A DNA stretch of 64,000 nucleotides from Gemmatimonadota bacterium (GCA_039587395.1 JBDHIQ010000005.1:21897-85896); one strand, 5' to 3'; positions 3,322-36,519 are shown, numbered from the stretch's first letter. Numbers and translations: made by a program. Notes: generated by a model from the sequence alone, not told the origin.

Positions 3322-4953
3322 TGCGTTCAGTAGACGCACTCTGCAGTCAACGGCAACCGAAGCGGTGTGCCGCACCCGTGCGGCGGACGCTGATGGCGCT
3401 CATATGGTTGGCTGCCGGCTGTACAGGGTCGCAACCGGAGCTTCCCGTGCCTTCCGAAGCCTCCACGCCGCCCGAGATCCCGCCGTCCTGGCCGGGTTCG
3501 TTTCCGCGCGTGGTCATCGACGGCCGGCTGGACGACTGGTCCGCCGAGGTTACCCAGCTCACGGATCCTGCAGATGCTCCTGATGGGCCGGTGGATATCC
3601 GCCGCGTTCTGGTGACCAACCCTGCTGCTGGACGCAGACGACGACCCCGGGACCGGGGTCGCTCTCCATGGCCTGAGCGGGGTGGACGTGGCAATCGATT
3701 TCACGCGTCAGGATGCAGAGCAGCCCTCGCAGGTGCTGGAGGGGATCGCCGTCAGAGCTGTTCCGTCTTCGATCATGCTGAGTCCGTACGACCTCGGGCT
3801 GTGGTTCGAGCCGCGTCACTCGTCTCGAGTGATCGAGCTGCGCCTGGCGCGAGGGAGCCGTTTGCCTGACGGACGCGGGCTCTTCACGGCCGCCAGTTTC
3901 CACGGCAAGCTGGTCGGCAGAGATCTCACCGGCACAGTCCGGGACGAGACGCGCAGTTTCACGCATGAATTCCGGGAATCGCTGGCCGGTGGCGAACCGG
4001 TAACATCCGCAGCACGGCCGGATCCACTGGCCCGGGCTCCCGAGGCGGATCTGCGGGTGGTGGTGTGGAACGTGTCTCGCAACAGGATGCTGGAACGCCC
4101 GGAACCGTTCTCGCGGATTCTCGCCGCCCTTTCCCCCGACGTGGTCTTGCTCGACGAAGTGCCGCCCGGGGCCACCGAAGACCACATCAGGAATCTGCTC
4201 GCTCACCTGGCCGACTTCACGAAATGGAGCATTACGCCGGGAGAGAACGGAGGTAGCCAGCGGGGTGCCGTCGCCAGCAGGTTCGCAACGACCGCGGTTC
4301 CGGGCCTCAGCCGCATTGTCTACCCGGATTCCACACTGCGGGTTATGGGCGGCACGTCGTCACCAGGCCTCATGGACGTAGCGCGGAACGCGCGCTCCGG
4401 GGCTATCCCCGCGCACGGAACCGAGGTCAACCAGGGTGACAGGCGGATCCTTGTCGTCACGCTTGATCTGGTGTGTTGCGGAAACAGCGCGACGGCGGCG
4501 CAGGATAGGGTGCGGCGGATAGAAGCGGCAGCCATTCGCGCGGCCGTTCACGCGACGCTGAACCGGGAGGCGTTCGATGCCGTGCTGATCGGGGGCGATT
4601 TCAACCTGGTCGGTTCCCAGTTCCCGCTGGACGAACTGAGCCGCGATCTCGACCTGGATGGCGGAGACCTCTCGGTGGTGGAAGCCCTGCAGCTGGACGG
4701 GCTGTCTTCGGCGACCTGGGATGAAGGGAGCGGGCCTTTTCCTCCCGGCCAGCTGGACTACCTGCTGTACAGCGACCGGTCTCTCGAGGTGCGGCGGGCG
4801 TTCGTGTTCGATTCAGAGGACCTGGCCCCCGATTGGCTCGCGGCCCACGGGCTGCAGGCGGAGGACTCGGACCTGGCATCGGACCATCGACCCGTGGTGG
4901 CCGACTTCATGTGGTCATCGCAGGCAGGCGAGGCCCAACCTCCCGACAACTAG
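3318..4953 (+). pseudogene. Exported endonuclease/exonuclease/phosphatase (EEP) family lipoprotein, frameshifted near 3620
   Basis: N-part has a lipobox (LAAGC) and IDGRLDDW. A different frame continues LLLDADDDPGTG into ORF 3682..4953 with EEP motifs VVWNV, PDVVLLDE, GGDFN, LDYLLYS, SDHRPV. Lesion may be an assembly error. Confidence 0.7.
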
Positions 4954-5062
4954 AGACGCGCGATGCGTTGCCGTCGCCGCCCGCCGATCGCATCCTGATA
5001 GCGCGCCCCGAGCCCCTCACCGGACGGGCCCGGATCCGACTGCGACCGCCCTGCTAGAGATG

Positions 5063-6366
5063 ATGGATATGGAGACGTTCTGCACGATAAGGATCTCCCG
5101 GACCACGCCGGCGACACCGTCCAGCTGCGCGGGTGGGTCCGGAATCACCGTTCCAGCGGCAAGATTGCCTTTGCGGTGCTGAGAGATGGCACCGGCCAGG
5201 TGCAGGTTGTCTTCCCCAGGGATGAGGTCACTGAGCAAGCCTGGAGCGCCCTGGAAGACCTCGGGTACGAGGCCAGCATTCGCGTGGTAGGCCAGGTTCG
5301 GCAGGATGATCGGGCCCCGGGCGGATACGAGATCCATGCCCACGATGCCGAGATCCTGGGAGAGTCGCTGGACTACCCCATCCAGCCCAAGGAACACGGC
5401 ACGGACTTCCTGCTGGAGAATCGCCACCTGTGGCTGCGAAGCCCCAGGCAGATCGCCATCATGCGGGTCCGCGACGAGATCATCCGAGCCATCCGGGATT
5501 TCCTCCACGAGCGGGACTTCGTGATGGTCGATACGCCCATCCTCACGGGCTCGATCGGCGAATCCGCAGGCACGCTGTTCGAGACGGAGTACTTCGATCT
5601 CGGAACGGCTTACCTGGCACAGACGGGCCAGCTGTACGCCGAGGCGGCGGCGGCCGCGTTGGGAAAGGTCTACTGCTTCGGCCCGACGTTCCGCGCCGAG
5701 AAGTCCAAGACGCGGCGACACCTCACCGAGTTCTGGATGATGGAGCCCGAGGTGGCCTGGCTGGACAGTGAGGGCAACATGCAGCTCCAGGAGGACATGA
5801 TCTGCTACATCGTGGATCGTGTCCTGGAGCATCGCCGCGAGCAGTTGGGCATCCTGGATCGGGATGTCGAGGCGCTGGAGAAGGTGAAGGCTCCGTTCGA
5901 CCGGCTTAGCTACACGGAGGCGGTGGAGCAACTGCAGGGACAGGGGAGCGACATCCGGTGGGGAGCCGACCTGGGCGCCGGAGACGAAACGATTCTCACC
6001 GATGGCCGGGAGGGCCCGCTATTCGTGTACGACTACCCGAAACAGGCCAAGGCCTTCTACATGAAGGAAAATCCAGAAGATCCGCGCACCGTCAAGTGCA
6101 ACGATCTCCTGGCTCCCGAGGGCTACGGCGAGATCATCGGCGGCAGCCAGCGAGAGGACGACTACGACAAGCTGCTTTCCCGGATCCGCGAAGAGGGCCT
6201 TCCCGAAGAGTCGTACGACTGGTACCTGGACCTGCGGCGATACGGGACGTTCACGCACAGCGGATATGGTCTGGGGATCGAGAGAACCGTGAGTTGGATC
6301 TGCGGGCTCTCGCACCTGCGAGAGGCGATTGCGTTTCCGCGGATGATGACGCGTATCACTCCCTGA
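5063..6366 (+). CDS. asnS: Asparagine--tRNA ligase (apparent 1-nt frameshift at about 5089)
   Basis: YLAQTGQLY, FGPTFRAEKSKTRRHLTEFWM, GEIIGGSQRE, HSGYGLGIER. N-terminus MDMETFCTI is one frame off from KDLPDHAGDTVQLRGWVRNHRSSGK. Confidence 0.93.
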
Positions 6367-8803: not shown

Positions 8804-9417
8804 ATGGTAGAACCGGACATGACCGGCGGCGACGCGGGGCCACGCAGGGTTCCCAGGCGGCTGCGTGAGCGCGCTCCGGAGCTGCTGGTGGAGGCTTTTT
8901 CGGTCATGCTTGCCGTCCTGGTCGCGCTGGCCGTGGATGCCTGGCGAGAAGACCGGTCATACAGAGAGCTGGCCGAGCGAGCGCAGGCGAGCATCGTCGA
9001 AGAGATCCAGACCAACCGCGCCGAGCTTGCCAGTGCAGCCGACAGCAACGACGAGCTTCTCGGGCAGCTTGGACGCTCTCCGGTTTCGATTTCTCCTTCT
9101 CGCTCCTCACATCCGCCGCATGGCAAACTGCCCAGATGACCCGTGCCGCTCACTTTCTGGATTTTGACTGGGTGACCAGGGTAGCCCGCCTCTACGATCT
9201 GCAGGAGTTGTACGAGCGGGCCCAGTCGGCTGTCGTGGATGAGTTCGGCGCCGGTGGTCCGGGCGAGGCGCAGTTGGAGGAGTTCCTTCGCAAACTGCAG
9301 GCCCGCATCTCCCTGGCAGCGACGCTCCAGGACGGGCTGTTGGAAGAGTATGAGGAAGTGCTGACGGAGTCCGGCTCCGGGGCAGGGGATTTGGCCCCTG
9401 AAGCGGATGGAGCTTAG
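8804..9417 (+). pseudogene. Single-pass membrane protein (N-terminal TM plus helical domain), frameshifted at about 9070-9078
   Basis: TM ELLVEAFSVMLAVLVALAV then coiled-coil. A second frame from 9079 reads SGFDFSFSLLTSAAWQTAQ straight into ORF 9136..9417. Confidence 0.6.
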
Positions 9418-10298
9418 TGAAGACTGAGCGAAAGGGAACCATTCATATGATACCAGCAGTCGACACCCTTGCACCATCGCGCTGGTCCGCGACGGCGGTG
9501 ATGACCGCGCTGGCCCTGACAGCGGTATTGTCCGGCACCCTCCACGCGCAGCAGCTCCCGGCCGAATTGGAGGCCGAGCTTCAGGGAAAGACGGTCTTTT
9601 CGGACGGCACCCTGCTCCGTCATGCGTCTGTCGATGCGGCACAAGCTGCAGAAATCGCCAGCTTGCTGGGAATCGGGCGGCAGCGCATCGAGACCTTCTT
9701 CGGCGAGCCGTTTCCCGAGCCCTTCACGGTGACTCTGGCACCCGACCGCGACAGCTTCAGCGCCGTCCTGCGCGCGGAATGGGGCGTCCCGGAGACCGCA
9801 TGCTGGATGGTAGCCACGGGTGTCGCCGACTTCATGGTCATTCTCTCGCCCCGCGTCTGGGAGAAGCAGGCCTGCGAGCACGATCCGTCCGACAAGCAGC
9901 ATGTCCAGGACATCGTTACGCACGAGCTTGCCCATGTCTTCCACGGCCAGCGCAATCCGACGCGTGATTTCAGCGGGGCGGAGGAGATAGGCTGGTACGC
10001 GGAGGGACTCGCCGTTCTGGTAGCGGATCAGCTGAACCGGGATAGGCTGTCGGATCCGGCCCAGGCGGTAGCGAGCGGTGCGGCGCCGACGCGACTGGCC
10101 GACGCATGGTCTGGAGAGTACCGGTACGGTGTCTCGGGCTCCATCGCCGCCTACATCGACCACCAGTACGGTCGTCAGACCACGCTCCAGCTGCTGTCCG
10201 TAACGACTCAGGCGGAGCTGCTCTCGGTGCTGGACATTGCCGAGGAAGCTCTGCTGACGGCCTGGAAGAGCTGGCTGAGCGAATCCGCGGGTGGCTGA
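9417..10298 (+). CDS. Secreted gluzincin-type zinc metallopeptidase (clan MA-like)
   Basis: Signal peptide ending LHA-Q; HELAH at 9921-9935 plus downstream WYAEGLA third-ligand motif. Confidence 0.8.
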   Translation: MKTERKGTIHMIPAVDTLAPSRWSATAVMTALALTAVLSGTLHAQQLPAELEAELQGKTVFSDGTLLRHASVDAAQAAEIASLLGIGRQRIETFFGEPFPEPFTVTLAPDRDSFSAVLRAEWGVPETACWMVATGVADFMVILSPRVWEKQACEHDPSDKQHVQDIVTHELAHVFHGQRNPTRDFSGAEEIGWYAEGLAVLVADQLNRDRLSDPAQAVASGAAPTRLADAWSGEYRYGVSGSIAAYIDHQYGRQTTLQLLSVTTQAELLSVLDIAEEALLTAWKSWLSESAGG

Positions 10299-10848
10299 CC
10301 AGACAGGGATGATGGTTCCGGGCGGCAAGTGGCTGGCAATCGGGCTGGCCCTGGCTGGCTGGGGCGCCTGCTTCATCCTGGAGCCCACACGCCCGTGGCT
10401 CACCAATGCCGCGGTCGTTCTGGCCGCCCTGGCGGGAGCCTACCTGCTTGCCGGATTCATGTCCTCACGTGTCGCGGTCGTGTCCTTTGCCATCGCAGGG
10501 GCACTGTCGGACCTGATCTCGGTGTATCGGGGCCCCACTCGCTGGATTGTCGAATCCGAGGAGGCCCGCTCATGGCTCCGCTACCTGGCCGTCGGTATGG
10601 ATCTGGATGGACGGTGGATCGCGATAGTGGGTCTGGGCGATCTCCTGTTTCTAGGGGCGTTCGCACTGGCATTGAAGCGGTTGGGGTGGAGCCCCGCAAC
10701 CGCCGTATCCGTGCCGCTGCTGGGGCTGCTGGGCGCGATTGGCACGGGACTCCTGGCCGGCCCACTGCCCGGAATCCCGTTCATGTCGGCTACGGTACTC
10801 GCGTTTCTGTGGTGGGCCGCGGTGCGAGAGAAGAAGTCCGGGTCTTGA
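10291..10848 (+). CDS. Presenilin/SPP-like GxGD intramembrane aspartyl protease homolog
   Basis: About 6 hydrophobic helices; ALSDLISVYRGPTR, IVGLGDLLF and PLPGIP in presenilin order; alternative ATG start at 10309. Confidence 0.65.
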   Translation: MADQTGMMVPGGKWLAIGLALAGWGACFILEPTRPWLTNAAVVLAALAGAYLLAGFMSSRVAVVSFAIAGALSDLISVYRGPTRWIVESEEARSWLRYLAVGMDLDGRWIAIVGLGDLLFLGAFALALKRLGWSPATAVSVPLLGLLGAIGTGLLAGPLPGIPFMSATVLAFLWWAAVREKKSGS

Positions 10849-10923
10849 TGCGGCGTGTGCCTTGCACCATCCATAAGGAGATACAACAAGGGAGTCGGTC
10901 CACCTGCAGAAAGGACGCCACCG

Positions 10924-11337
10924 ATGGCATTCACGATCCGTCGCGTCGAGTACTTCTACACGACCGTCCGCGACGAGCCCGGCGAAGCCTACTCGCTTCT
11001 AACCCAGTTGGCCCGACTGGGACTCAACCTGCTCGCCTTCACCGCCGTCCCGGTAGGACCGATGCGCACCCAGCTGGCCCTATTTCCCGAGGACCCGCGC
11101 CAGATGGAAGATACGGCGCGAAAGGCCGGGTTCGACCTCGACGGTCCGCACCTCGCGCTCCTGGTCCAGGGCGATGATGAGCTGGGAGCGCTGGCACAGG
11201 TGCATGAGAAGCTGTATGGAGCGGGAGTCAACGTGTACGCATCGACCGGTGTCGCCGACGGCAAGGGCGCCTACGGCTACGTTGTCTACGTCCGACCCGA
11301 GGAGTACGCACGGGCCACGTCCGCCCTCGACATCTGA
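10924..11337 (+). CDS. Stand-alone tandem ACT-domain protein
   Basis: VRDEPGEAYSLLTQLARLGLNL and GDDELGALAQVHEKLYGAGVNV ACT signatures; AAAGGA RBS. Confidence 0.85.
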   Translation: MAFTIRRVEYFYTTVRDEPGEAYSLLTQLARLGLNLLAFTAVPVGPMRTQLALFPEDPRQMEDTARKAGFDLDGPHLALLVQGDDELGALAQVHEKLYGAGVNVYASTGVADGKGAYGYVVYVRPEEYARATSALDI

Positions 11338-11379: not shown

Positions 11380-11851
11380 GATGGGTCCGGGCCTCCTCGG
11401 TCTGGTGTTTCTCGGAATCGTGGGACCGGCCCAGGTGGTCCGCGCGCCAAGCCTGCCGGCCACGGAGATTGGCGGAGGCTACTACGAGCCGGCGGCCGGC
11501 GCGGCCAGCCGGCTCCTGGCCCAGCTGGGCGCCCACCGCTGCGCTGCCGGGACCATATCGGAGTCTACGGTTGAGGGTGTGCCGTTTGTCGGCCAGATCG
11601 CGCTGGACGCAGGTACGCTGCTGGCCGTGCCGGTCGAGGCTGCCCTGGAGCCCGGGCGGCCCATCGTCGGCGCCACGATACTGGTGACGGACGTGCAGGC
11701 GGCAAGGCGGTTCGCCTCTGTCCCACCGGGACGCCAGCCTGCCTTCGAAGAGGACTGGCGGGGCAGGTTCGTCCGTGTATCTCCCTCGCGGGCTCATGGC
11801 CTGTGGCTCGAGTTCCTTGAACCGGGCGCAAACGGGCAGTGTGCATCGTGA
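11380..11851 (+). CDS. Hypothetical protein with VOC/glyoxalase-like C-terminus
   Basis: Fills the gap between the ACT and DinB genes; GATILVTDVQAARRF and PSRAHGLWLEF; start uncertain. Confidence 0.5.
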
Positions 11852-32796: not shown

Positions 32797-34041
32797 TCAC
32801 TCGTAACGCAGCGAATCCACCGGGTCCAACCGGGCTGCCTTTCGCGCCGGCAGTATGCCGGCCAGCAGCCCGATTCCGACCAGTATGGCCAGGCACAGGG
32901 ATGCAATAGGCCACGACAACTTCGGATTCAGAATGTACTGCATTGCCTCGTTGTCGTAGGGGAGGGAGTCCACCCCGAGGACCACGGCGGTCGAGAATGC
33001 CAGGCCGACCAGTCCGCCGCCAACGGCGATGAGCAACGCCTCGAAGATGAACTGACTCATGATGTGCCGCTTGCGCGCCCCCACGGCCAGCTTGACGCCT
33101 ATCTCCCGCGTACGCTCGCGAACCACCACATACATGATGTTGGCGACGCCAACTCCGGCGACGAGCAGCGTGAACCCTCCCACCATGCCCAGGAAGATCT
33201 GGATTCCGAGGCCGATGGCCCGGGTCAGCTTTTCGTCCTCGATGAAGTCCCACATGGCCAGGGCCCGCTCATCCGCCGGGTCGAACTTGTATCGTCTGCC
33301 CAGTACCTGGTACAGCTGATTCTTGACGTGGGCCGCCTCGCTGATGTCGCGCGGTCGAACGATGAGATGGCCCACCCAGCGGTGCCCATAGATGGTCCGG
33401 AAGGTGGACGCGGGGATGATGGCTCGGTCTTCGTCCGGACCGTTGTTGCTACTGTCCTGGAACTTCTTCTGCATGACTCCGACGACCGTGAACGGGAGAC
33501 CGTCCAGCTCTACCGTCTGGCCTACCGGATTCGTGTCGCCGAACAAGCGCTCCGCGATGGCGTCACCGAGGAACAGCACACGTCGCTGCTGCTCCATGTC
33601 CCTCCAGTTGAGGAACCGGCCGCCCTGCGCCGGATACGTGCGGCGCATGAACATGAAGTCGGGGTTTACCCCCTCCATGTACGTGGTGGTCTTGTTGTCG
33701 CCCGCCTCCAGGGTCACTCCCCAGCGTCCGTAGGAGGGGCTGCCCATCTCGATCTCCGGGATGGCCTTCACTAGAAGGGTGAGATCCGCCTCCGTCAGCC
33801 GGACCCGCCGACCCTTCGCCAGGCCCTCGAACTCCTGGCTGGTCTGTCCGCCGTACACCATGAAGATGCGCTCGCCCGCGTTCAGCAGACCGTTGGTGAC
33901 GCTGCGCCGGAGGCCCTCGCCGAACGCGAGGAGGAGCACTACAGAAATGGTGCCCCACACCATGGCGAAGATGGTCAGAAAGGCGCGCGTCTTCTGCACC
34001 TTCAGATCTCCCCAGAACTCCTCGAACAGGATCTTCCACAT
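32797..34041 (-). CDS. ABC transporter permease, MacB/FtsX-like
   Basis: GVGVANIMYVVVRERTREIGVKLAVGA, PARKAARLDPVDSLRYE. Confidence 0.93.
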   Translation of the reverse strand: MWKILFEEFWGDLKVQKTRAFLTIFAMVWGTISVVLLLAFGEGLRRSVTNGLLNAGERIFMVYGGQTSQEFEGLAKGRRVRLTEADLTLLVKAIPEIEMGSPSYGRWGVTLEAGDNKTTTYMEGVNPDFMFMRRTYPAQGGRFLNWRDMEQQRRVLFLGDAIAERLFGDTNPVGQTVELDGLPFTVVGVMQKKFQDSSNNGPDEDRAIIPASTFRTIYGHRWVGHLIVRPRDISEAAHVKNQLYQVLGRRYKFDPADERALAMWDFIEDEKLTRAIGLGIQIFLGMVGGFTLLVAGVGVANIMYVVVRERTREIGVKLAVGARKRHIMSQFIFEALLIAVGGGLVGLAFSTAVVLGVDSLPYDNEAMQYILNPKLSWPIASLCLAILVGIGLLAGILPARKAARLDPVDSLRYE

Positions 34042-34174
34042 GGCCGCTAGCCTCCCACCCGAGGTCGGCTAGCGGCTCTCAAGCGGAGGGCGGCGTGTGG
34101 CCTCAGAGGGCGCCTCGGTTGCGGAGCAACCGCCAGCGCCCGGAGAGGCGTGCATGCCGCCGAGCGTTCGGAGA

Positions 34175-35407
34175 TCAGTCGCGCAGACATTCCACCGGAT
34201 CCAGACTTGCTGCTCGCCGCGCCGGGAAGAAGCCGGCGAGCATGGAGACCAGCGCGAGGAGGGTCATCGTGACGAGAGCCACCTCGAACGAGATAGTCGG
34301 AACGCCCACGATGTCTTGCATGGGAACCACCGTGGCGAGTTTCACCAGTCCGATCGATATGAGAATGCCGAGCGCGGCCCCGATGGCGACGATCATGAAG
34401 CTCTCGGCCAGGAACTGCCACAGGATGTTCCTCCGCCTGGCACCGAGCGACCGCTTGATGCCGATCTCGGGCGTCCGCTCCTTCACGACGATGTACATGA
34501 TGTTGGCCACGCCTATGCCGCCCACGCTGAGCGTGAAGCTGCCGACGATGGCAAAGAAGATATTGAAGCCGAGGAACATGTAGCCGAACAGTTTCTCGAA
34601 CTCCGCCGTGTCCCAGACAGCCAGGGCGTCCTCGTCCGCCGGGTCGAATCGGTACTTGCGCCCGAGGATCTGGTAGACCTGTGCCTCCACACCCTTGGTG
34701 ACCAGCGCGTCGCGTGTCCGGTAGATGATGTTGTTCAGATTGCGGTGCCCGAAGATGGCCTCATGCGTGCTGGCCGGGATGAACACGCGGTCCGTGTCCC
34801 GCGAGTTGTAGGACGAGTTCTGCAGCTTGGGCTTCATCACCCCGATGACCGTAAACAGCGCGTTGCCGACCAGGACATCCTTTCCGACCGGGTCTTCATC
34901 GTCAAAGAGGAGACTTGCCACGCCATCGCCCAGAAAGATCACCCGCCGCCGCTCGTCTTCATCACGCTGGTTGATGAACCGCCCCCCCATCTCGGGGATC
35001 ACGTTGCGCATGTACCCGTAAACGGAGGAAATGCCGGTGATAGCCGGGTTTACGCCGTTTCGCTTGTACCGTACCGGCGTGTTGCGCTCCACGTACTCGG
35101 GGCTGATCATCACGATTTCGGGGATCTGCCTGGCGAGCGTCCGAACGTCCTCCGAGCGGAGACCGATGTACCTGCCTTCGCCGAAGCCGGCGTAAGCCCG
35201 GGTCGTTCTCCCTCCGAACAGAATCACGATTCGGTCGCCCAGGCCGTGGAACCGCTTGCGCGTTTGATTCTCCAGGCCGACGCCGAACGCGAGCAGCACC
35301 ACCACGGCCACGGTCCCCCAGGTGATCCCCAAGATCGTGAGGGTGGTCCGCAGGCGCTGGGCCCTGAGGTCGGCCCACAGCTGCAGGATGGCGTCGTTCA
35401 GGCGCAT
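34175..35407 (-). CDS. ABC transporter permease, MacB/FtsX-like
   Basis: GGIGVANIMYIVVKERTPEIGIKRSLGA, PARRAASLDPVECLR. Confidence 0.93.
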   Translation of the reverse strand: MRLNDAILQLWADLRAQRLRTTLTILGITWGTVAVVVLLAFGVGLENQTRKRFHGLGDRIVILFGGRTTRAYAGFGEGRYIGLRSEDVRTLARQIPEIVMISPEYVERNTPVRYKRNGVNPAITGISSVYGYMRNVIPEMGGRFINQRDEDERRRVIFLGDGVASLLFDDEDPVGKDVLVGNALFTVIGVMKPKLQNSSYNSRDTDRVFIPASTHEAIFGHRNLNNIIYRTRDALVTKGVEAQVYQILGRKYRFDPADEDALAVWDTAEFEKLFGYMFLGFNIFFAIVGSFTLSVGGIGVANIMYIVVKERTPEIGIKRSLGARRRNILWQFLAESFMIVAIGAALGILISIGLVKLATVVPMQDIVGVPTISFEVALVTMTLLALVSMLAGFFPARRAASLDPVECLRD

Positions 35408-35424
35408 GGAGCGATCCCGTCAGC

Positions 35425-36519
35425 CTACGAAATTTCCCTGGGCGGCGGCTCGACCAGCTGCTCGCCTTCCTCCAGGCCCGAGATCACCTCTACGTTGATG
35501 CCGTCGCTGAGACCCGTCTCGATGATGCGTTCCTCCGTCAGCTCACCCGCCAGCTTCACCGTCACGCGCGCGGTGTCCCCGGAAAAAGCGATCAACCTCT
35601 CCGGAATGAACAGGACGTCCGCCCGATTCTCGATGATGATGTCCGCATTCGCCGAGTATCCCGCGCGCAGCGTGGAGCCCTCCGCGGCTGACACCGTGAT
35701 CTCCACCGGGAAGGACGTGGCATTCTCCAGCTCCCGGCCCTTCAACGAGATCCGGAACAACACGCCTTCGATGGGTTCATCCGGCAACGCTCCGATCTTG
35801 AGCAGGACGGGCATGCCCTCCTCGAGGCGCCCGACGTCAATCTCATCGACCGTGCCCCGGAAGATGAGATCGTCCATCTCCGCCATGGTCATCAGGACGG
35901 TTCCTTCCTGGAAACTGGTCAGCGGCACGACCGGATCGCCAATCTCCACCATCTTCTCCAGGATGAAGCCCGTGATCGGGGCCTTGATGACCGTCTCGAC
36001 CTGCTCGTCGCCGATGGTCACGCGCCCTTCCTCCAGCAGCGCCAGACGCTCCCTGGAAATCTGAACCTGTAGCTTGGCCTCGCTGTAGCTCCGATCGACG
36101 GTCTCGAACTCCTCCTGCGTGACGTAGTCCTGATCACGGAGCGCAAGCAGGCGCTCCCGTTGCTTCTCAAGTTGAGTGAGCTCGATGTCTCGAAGCTCAA
36201 CCTGGCGACGACCTTCGACCAGTTCGATCGGGGTGGGATTAGGCTTGATCTCGAGGAGGGGTGACCCGGCGACCACGTACTCGCCGGGTTCCGAGTACAT
36301 GCGGCGTACCACCCCGGCCAGCTGCGACTTGACGCTGATCTCCACCAGCGGTTCGATACGGCCGACGGCCAGCGCCTTGTCCGCGATGTCGCCACGCTGC
36401 ACTTCCACGAGGCGCATCCCGTCTTCTCCGTTTCCGCCGGACGTCGTGACGGCCATGGCGGTTCCGCCCACACCGACGATGGCAATGGTGCCGAGTATGA
36501 TCTTCGTGCGTCGTTTCAT
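35425..36519 (-). CDS. Efflux periplasmic adaptor (MacA/HlyD-like)
   Basis: N-terminal TM, lipoyl halves (VKSQLAGVV, IKAPITG), VDEIDVG, VEVISGLEEGE. Confidence 0.92.
   Translation of the reverse strand: MKRRTKIILGTIAIVGVGGTAMAVTTSGGNGEDGMRLVEVQRGDIADKALAVGRIEPLVEISVKSQLAGVVRRMYSEPGEYVVAGSPLLEIKPNPTPIELVEGRRQVELRDIELTQLEKQRERLLALRDQDYVTQEEFETVDRSYSEAKLQVQISRERLALLEEGRVTIGDEQVETVIKAPITGFILEKMVEIGDPVVPLTSFQEGTVLMTMAEMDDLIFRGTVDEIDVGRLEEGMPVLLKIGALPDEPIEGVLFRISLKGRELENATSFPVEITVSAAEGSTLRAGYSANADIIIENRADVLFIPERLIAFSGDTARVTVKLAGELTEERIIETGLSDGINVEVISGLEEGEQLVEPPPREIS

Follow-up and report, generated by a model that had tools for sequence, protein, structure and literature searches.

The present analysis concerns a short gene on the plus strand at 10291..10848 of a 64,000-nucleotide stretch of DNA from a Gemmatimonadota bacterium (GCA_039587395.1 JBDHIQ010000005.1:21897-85896, hereafter the window, with positions counted from its first letter). 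Its product is probably a remote bacterial homologue of the presenilin and signal peptide peptidase (SPP) proteins, the GxGD intramembrane aspartyl proteases of MEROPS family A22. The assignment is made at the level of the family and draws on sequence profiles and on the modelled fold of a relative. An earlier sequence-only reading had taken the product for a minimal presenilin/SPP-like GxGD protease, and this identity is supported by conservation of two aspartates among the homologues, by profile matches to archaeal PSH and to presenilin-1, and by the fold similarity of a homologue to proteins annotated as A22.

The gene is real. Defined from its open reading frame (ORF) and from the starts of its homologues, it encodes 185 amino acids from the GTG at 10291 or 179 from the ATG at 10309, the latter being the start in the database form of the protein (P0002) and in its 88%-identical relative P0003. 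Because the frame opens only at 10279, an upstream extension or an extra hidden N-terminal helix is ruled out. GC content in this frame is 0.76 at the third codon position and 0.67 and 0.55 at the remaining ones, and in a six-frame translation of the whole window the protein was the sole match to the family profile. The sequence-only reading had placed the ORF correctly, and the positions it gave for three motifs are exact, namely a first candidate catalytic aspartate at codon 10510-10512, GLGD at 10630-10641 and PLPGIP at 10762-10779. Two numberings are used here: the aspartates are Asp74 and Asp117 when counted from the GTG start, and D68 and D111 in the numbering of P0002.

A phmmer search of 1.84 billion cluster representatives returned 194 relatives at E≤1e-3, of which 97 also pass E≤1e-10; their length is mostly 200-220 amino acids. 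A word-indexed search gave 11 relatives, the sole name among them being “hypothetical protein” from a Gemmatimonadota metagenome-assembled genome (MAG), and every family member with a named source genome is from the Gemmatimonadota. Three alignments were used: A1, of 11 sequences; A2, of the 139 proteins of 150-280 amino acids among 158 gathered (leaving out 17 shorter fragments, the 1103-residue P0152 and the duplicate P0001); and A3, of 31 PALP-type members. P0152, which phmmer matched at E 3.8e-7 over four stretches, was rejected as a family member; it is a secreted repeat protein with PPC and glycosyl hydrolase 17 domains, and its match is a false positive, probably because of those repeats. 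A homologue search with A2 found at least 8 matches and one with P0076 found 2, none of them with a name or taxon.

Conservation in A2 is high in the motif columns. The column of the first aspartate (D68) is D in 135 of 139 rows; S71, three residues further on, is present in all 139, G75, seven residues after the aspartate, in 136 and T77 in 121, while the remaining columns of this segment read R in 74, [LI] in 128 and [LIV] in 117. For GxGD, the first glycine (G108) and the aspartate (D111) are both invariant (139/139), with G110 in 116/139, so that the second aspartate that marks A22 proteases is present throughout. The sequence-only reading had made its case depend on both aspartates being conserved in homologues, as these counts show them to be. 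Further conserved columns in P0002 numbering are L93 (133/139), A143 (131/139), P157 (137/139) and F158 (119/139). The third motif is more variable: its columns hold P in 54 rows, A in 90 (G in 44), [IL] in 113 and, at the fourth position, P in 137, giving a family consensus of G-G-x-P-A-[IL]-P-F, with PA[LIVM]P in 31/139 and the literal PALP in 19/139. The protein studied here has PGIP at this place and not P-A-L. The proposal of a PAL-like third motif nonetheless held, as PGIP, a variant form, occupies the place where other members have PA[LI]P, a place that aligns with the PALP of presenilin-1. Judged from the alignment, the motifs are more than a chance resemblance, because they are conserved columns in 139 aligned relatives.

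Comparison of family profiles with solved structures points to A22. When the A2 profile was run against 177,635 distinct Protein Data Bank (PDB) sequences, the single match at E≤10 was the archaeal PSH of Methanoculleus marisnigri (4hyc_A, E 0.097, 15 bits). The match covers PSH residues 72 to 168 and sets the first family aspartate on D162; the GxGD aspartate falls on D220 in a separate, very weak stretch. D162 and D220 are given as the catalytic aspartates of PSH in PMC9282858. With A3 the best match was the C-terminal fragment of presenilin-1 (2kr6_A, E 0.1, 15.3 bits), in which GxGD and PALP are both in register with matching spacing; the next matches were Cys-loop channels at E 0.57-0.58, over an N-terminal helix only. 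Each of the two A22 matches is marginal singly. Jointly, two different halves of the family each pick out an A22 protein with its functional motifs in register. Searches against family libraries gave less, no relative attaining the cut-off of a Pfam or NCBIfam model. The protein alone matched no Pfam family, its best NCBIfam match was only noise (E 2), and neither it nor its 139 relatives had an above-gathering match to PF01080, PF04258 or PF06550, the SPP family PF06550 being touched by one of the 139 at E 0.012, below the cut-off.

Evidence on the fold comes from the ESM Atlas model of P0012 (predicted TM-score 0.79), a Gemmatimonadota homologue that is 39% identical over 138 amino acids (E 1e-13). 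Its top structural neighbours are three unannotated bacterial clusters (TM-score 0.80-0.84 by query). Among named clusters it resembles an archaeal “Presenilin domain” cluster (PF01080 on 67%, PF06550 on 34%) at 0.72, an archaeal SPP cluster (PF06550 on 98%) at 0.74 and a eukaryotic PA+Peptidase_A22B cluster at 0.75, these three scores being by query over about 190-200 residues. Apart from a cluster of 197-residue archaeal proteins with the Presenilin label (0.60 by query, 0.64 by row), all other structural rows have unrelated folds and score no higher than 0.34. The sequence-only reading would have been set aside had the best structural match been an unrelated transporter fold; for this homologue the named matches are instead presenilin and SPP. 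For P0005, which is 79% identical to the protein studied here, an Atlas feature search returned unannotated bacterial clusters at 0.90-0.93, and the sole named set was an SPP cluster at 0.83, rated a lead only. The unannotated bacterial clusters and the 197-residue archaeal one are nearest to P0012 and P0005 by features (0.90-0.94) and structure (0.80-0.84), and they are automatic groupings without a described function. The archaeal cluster is mostly from Thermoproteota, with Pfam Presenilin (PF01080) on 46% of members, and since it carries this label short presenilin-like proteins occur in Archaea as well.

Kyte-Doolittle hydropathy gives six hydrophobic helices, in agreement with the earlier proposal of about six transmembrane helices (TM) and of a stripped-down core in comparison with the nine of presenilin and PSH. 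All features in this paragraph are on the plus strand. Helix a (residues 13-30, 10327..10380) aligns in A1 with the second helix of the seven-helix relatives and by position would be presenilin TM4, and helix b (residues 36-57, 10396..10461), whose first residue is an Asn invariant in A1, corresponds by position to TM5. Helix c (residues 59-79, 10465..10527) is by hydropathy and conservation the counterpart of TM6 and bears Asp74, the first candidate catalytic aspartate, in A-L-S-D-L-I-S; an aspartate inside a TM6-type helix is a feature of A22 that the protein thus has. Helix d (residues 109-128, 10615..10674), the TM7 counterpart, contains GLGD with the second candidate, Asp117. Helix e (residues 136-157, 10696..10761), with conserved G139, A143 and G147 in P0002 numbering, matches TM8, and helix f (residues 164-177, 10780..10821), matching TM9, leads into the basic tail VREKKSGS. 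PGIP (10768..10779), the core of PLPGIP and by family column counts a variant PAL(P)-type motif, stands at the start of this last helix. Between the two aspartate helices column counts mark out GPTRWIV (10531..10551), in which a conserved G-x-T-R precedes two hydrophobic residues, and a short conserved hydrophobic segment in the loop, LRYL (10576..10587; L 118/139, Y 95/139, L 133/139).

Loop charges in the 139 sequences suggest how the protein may lie in the membrane. Lysine plus arginine per residue is high in loops b-c (0.237) and d-e (0.248) and in the C-terminal tail (0.207). It is low in the three other loops, at 0.087 in both a-b and c-d and 0.004 in e-f. By the positive-inside rule the Asp-Asp loop and the PAL loop would be external and the C-terminus cytoplasmic. 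This suggests the orientation of SPP, the opposite of that of presenilin. Asp74 and Asp117 are in adjacent helices, each within about 5-8 residues of the predicted outer end, and from hydropathy the two would be at a similar depth in the membrane. In such an arrangement they could face each other and activate water, with the putative enzyme acting alone and without cofactors, like PSH and SPP. The TM6a hydrophobic patch is described in PMC9282858 as needed by PSH and presenilin-1 for substrate cleavage, and the conserved G-x-T-R-x-[LI]-[LIV] after the first aspartate helix resembles it; GPTRWIV is therefore likely the counterpart of this substrate-contact element, and together with the PAL-like PGIP it may shape the active site and hold unwound substrate. 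According to PMC7768045, the SPP orientation goes with type II (N-in) substrate helices and the opposite orientation, that of presenilin, with type I. Because the orientation predicted from loop charges is that of SPP, likely substrates would be N-in/C-out helices, for example leftover signal peptides or signal-anchored proteins.

Several observations weigh against an A22 assignment, and they are of different kinds. The first aspartate is absent in four of the 139 rows (one E, one A and two truncated or misaligned), and the Tyr of the “YD” motif, as that motif is defined for A22 proteases in PMC7768045 and PMC2947513, was never found in the 139 rows, the residue before the aspartate being V in 69, A in 45, I and M in 7 each, S in 5 and T in 2; the protein studied here has S-D. 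Both PDB profile matches are marginal, at E near 0.1 and about 15 bits, and the GxGD stretch of the PSH match scores only 2.1 bits by itself. A search of PDB sequences with the single protein sequence gave only an irrelevant match at E 1.7, the A1 profile had no PDB match at E≤10, none of the 139 relatives reaches a Pfam gathering score, and three of them have weak matches to the FTR1 iron permease (best E 0.001). The fold evidence is that of a homologue's ESM model and not of the protein's own structure. The protein lacks counterparts of TM1-TM3, and in structures of gamma-secretase with substrate TM2 and TM3 touch the substrate. Finally, the four genome loci in which a family copy was found (L001-L004, all in Gemmatimonadota MAGs) show no conserved neighbourhood, as none of 8 neighbours from the window recurs in them, and two of the four, L002 (about 4739-5530) and L003 (about 4641-5465), have a copy broken up over two reading frames, one of which encodes the N-terminal part and the other the C-terminal part. 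These split copies could be pseudogenes or could result from indel errors in assembly.

An alternative explanation could be that the protein has a presenilin fold and is not a protease, serving rather as a cation leak channel or as a pseudo-protease that binds substrates or acts as a scaffold. The missing Tyr and the absence of the helices that help to hold substrate in nine-helix enzymes would fit this, as would the dual role of presenilin-like GxGD proteins as protease and channel, as cited in PMC7997004. It would not readily account for the observation that the aspartates, the GxGD glycines and the PAL-type proline vary little or not at all among 139 divergent relatives, which is the pattern expected of an active site. 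Pseudo-enzymes usually lose active-site residues. We therefore consider a non-proteolytic role unlikely.

Possession of GxGD with a small number of helices also recalls the A24 peptidases, i.e. prepilin peptidases and FlaK-type enzymes that remove pilin-like leader peptides, and FlaK and PibD are tabulated with 5-6 transmembrane segments in PMC4343526. Such an identity is very improbable, as Pfam scans of the protein and its 139 relatives found no match to Peptidase_A24, the third motif is of PAL(P) type, the nearest named structural clusters of P0012 are Presenilin, SPP and Peptidase_A22B with no A24 prepilin-peptidase cluster among its neighbours, and no pilin or secretion genes were seen adjoining the gene. 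Nor is it easy to regard the motifs as accidents in some small membrane protein of another kind, a transporter subunit for example. The E values to A22 proteins and the FTR1 matches leave room for this, but two halves of the family profile each have an A22 protein as best PDB match with the catalytic motifs in register, and the independent structural comparison of the homologue leads to three A22-annotated clusters; chance resemblance is already disfavoured and has scarcely any probability left. Membership of the protein in the presenilin/SPP class as a remote homologue is thus the reading preferred here.

Within that class the protein is a short variant. It departs from A22 members in three formal respects, having neither nine helices nor YD nor a Pfam match. 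It possesses both aspartates, and its homologue P0012 has the fold; this combination sets it apart from ordinary members. It is also short in comparison with its own family, with 67 residues before the first aspartate against a family median of 93 (quartiles 91, 96); fewer than 75 are found in 16 of the 139 rows, many of which are probably fragments, and more than 115 in 3. A median of 93 residues ahead of the first aspartate agrees with seven helices in most relatives. By sequence the seven-helix members would correspond to TM3-TM9 of PSH and the six-helix protein to TM4-TM9. In a quick IQ-TREE phylogeny the clade of the protein (P0002-P0005) lies inside the family on a long, well-supported branch (SH-aLRT 100, stem 1.12). 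With a midpoint root only, this suggests that the six-helix form arose when one lineage lost the first helix.

Among described systems the closest likeness is to PSH (MCMJR1; PDB 4HYC, 4HYG; A22), which is similarly prokaryotic and encoded by a single gene, and which needs no cofactor, as is proposed for the bacterial protein. Besides the alignment of the two aspartates, a hydrophobic segment comes after the first aspartate helix of PSH, a PAL-type motif occurs in it too, and it shares with the protein a D-x-I-S-V-Y-R stretch. It differs in having 301 amino acids and nine helices (as tabulated in PMC4343526) against 179-185 and six, and YD against SD, and the similarity is under the Pfam SPP cut-off. 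Eukaryotic SPP and SPPL proteins (Peptidase_A22B) share GxGD, the PAL motif (in the bacterial protein the variant PGIP), work without cofactors, which for the bacterial protein is proposed, and a cytoplasmic C-terminus with the Asp-Asp loop outside, which loop charges predict for it. Unlike it they possess nine helices and YD and, in many cases, additional domains such as PA. Presenilin-1 has GxGD and PALP at the spacing found in the family, and the G-P-x-R-x-[IL]-V-E after the first aspartate resembles a presenilin-1 stretch cited in the sequence-only reading, a likeness that does not come from a tool alignment. In contrast to the bacterial protein, presenilin as described in PMC7768045 requires three partner proteins and endoproteolysis, and has nine helices, the opposite orientation and type I substrates.

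Literature searches turned up no paper on short bacterial presenilin-like proteins. In two reviews, as far as their class descriptions and tables go, the presenilin/SPP-type GxGD class is given as presenilin and the eukaryal SPP families, with one archaeal homologue, PSH, tabulated. The family described here, of at least 194 sequence clusters, has no name in Pfam or NCBIfam and is uncharacterised. The bacterial relatives are not wholly new, since the ESM Atlas clusters show that related bacterial proteins are in databases, a minority with automatic A22B labels. If the assignment is correct, the family would extend the A22 enzyme class into Bacteria and make available natural six- and seven-helix versions of its catalytic core, which could show which helices are dispensable, and a small cofactor-free protein of this kind could be a simpler model of presenilin-type active sites. 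It also raises the question of which bacterial process uses such cleavage beside the S2P, rhomboid and SppA systems.

The surroundings of the gene are those of an ordinary chromosome, at about 65% GC, with genes for FtsY, RecG, a class II aminoacyl-tRNA synthetase, Maf, MsrA, alanine racemase, a MiaB-like enzyme, ComEC, purine synthesis, HtrA and others; searches of the 64-kb window found neither tRNA genes nor Rfam families at gathering score. A tblastn search against plasmids gave no match, and neither did PHROGs or PADLOC, so that nothing points to a phage or defence context. Immediately upstream, at 9417..10298 on the plus strand, is a gene for a 293-residue protein with a signal-peptide-like N-terminus and the motif HELAH at 9921-9935. 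This protein has no Pfam match and weakly matches the HExxH region of NCBIfam flagellinolysin (E 0.003, 17 bits against a cut-off of 205), and from its sequence it is a putative uncharacterised secreted zinc metallopeptidase. Its stop codon (TGA, 10296-10298) overlaps the GTG start of the membrane protein and lies 10 nucleotides before the ATG start, and no terminator-like site was seen between them. The two genes are possibly co-transcribed.

A bolder possibility, which we regard as rather doubtful, is that no smaller presenilin-type protease exists in nature, the protein being active although it lacks the three N-terminal helices by which gamma-secretase holds substrate, and that it is co-transcribed with the secreted HExxH metallopeptidase as a compact two-step module. 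The HExxH enzyme would shed the outer part of a membrane protein, leaving a helix for the membrane enzyme to cut; in another version the membrane enzyme would clear signal peptides. The idea of a conserved partner gene was dropped, as L001-L004 have no shared neighbours, the Pfam content of the neighbours differing among them, and the HExxH gene adjoins in this window only. In L001 a gene for an extracytoplasmic function (ECF) sigma factor (3819..4388, minus strand) lies divergent beside an unknown ORF of 160 amino acids (4378..4860, plus strand) that overlaps the start of the homologue by 4 nucleotides. A link to anti-sigma processing is conceivable from this one locus; the sigma factor was rejected as a partner, being divergent and with no linkage established.

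Downstream of the gene, at 10924..11337 on the plus strand (or from a GTG at 10855), is a small protein with no relative among solved structures or in NCBIfam, its only match being to Pfam GGDEF_2, below threshold at E 5.5e-4. After it, at 11387-11405, is a terminator-like hairpin, of a kind that is no commoner in the window than in shuffled sequence. Farther along, at 32797..36519 on the minus strand, two tandem MacB/FtsX-type permease genes stand beside an HlyD-type membrane-fusion gene, in what looks like an ordinary tripartite efflux locus.

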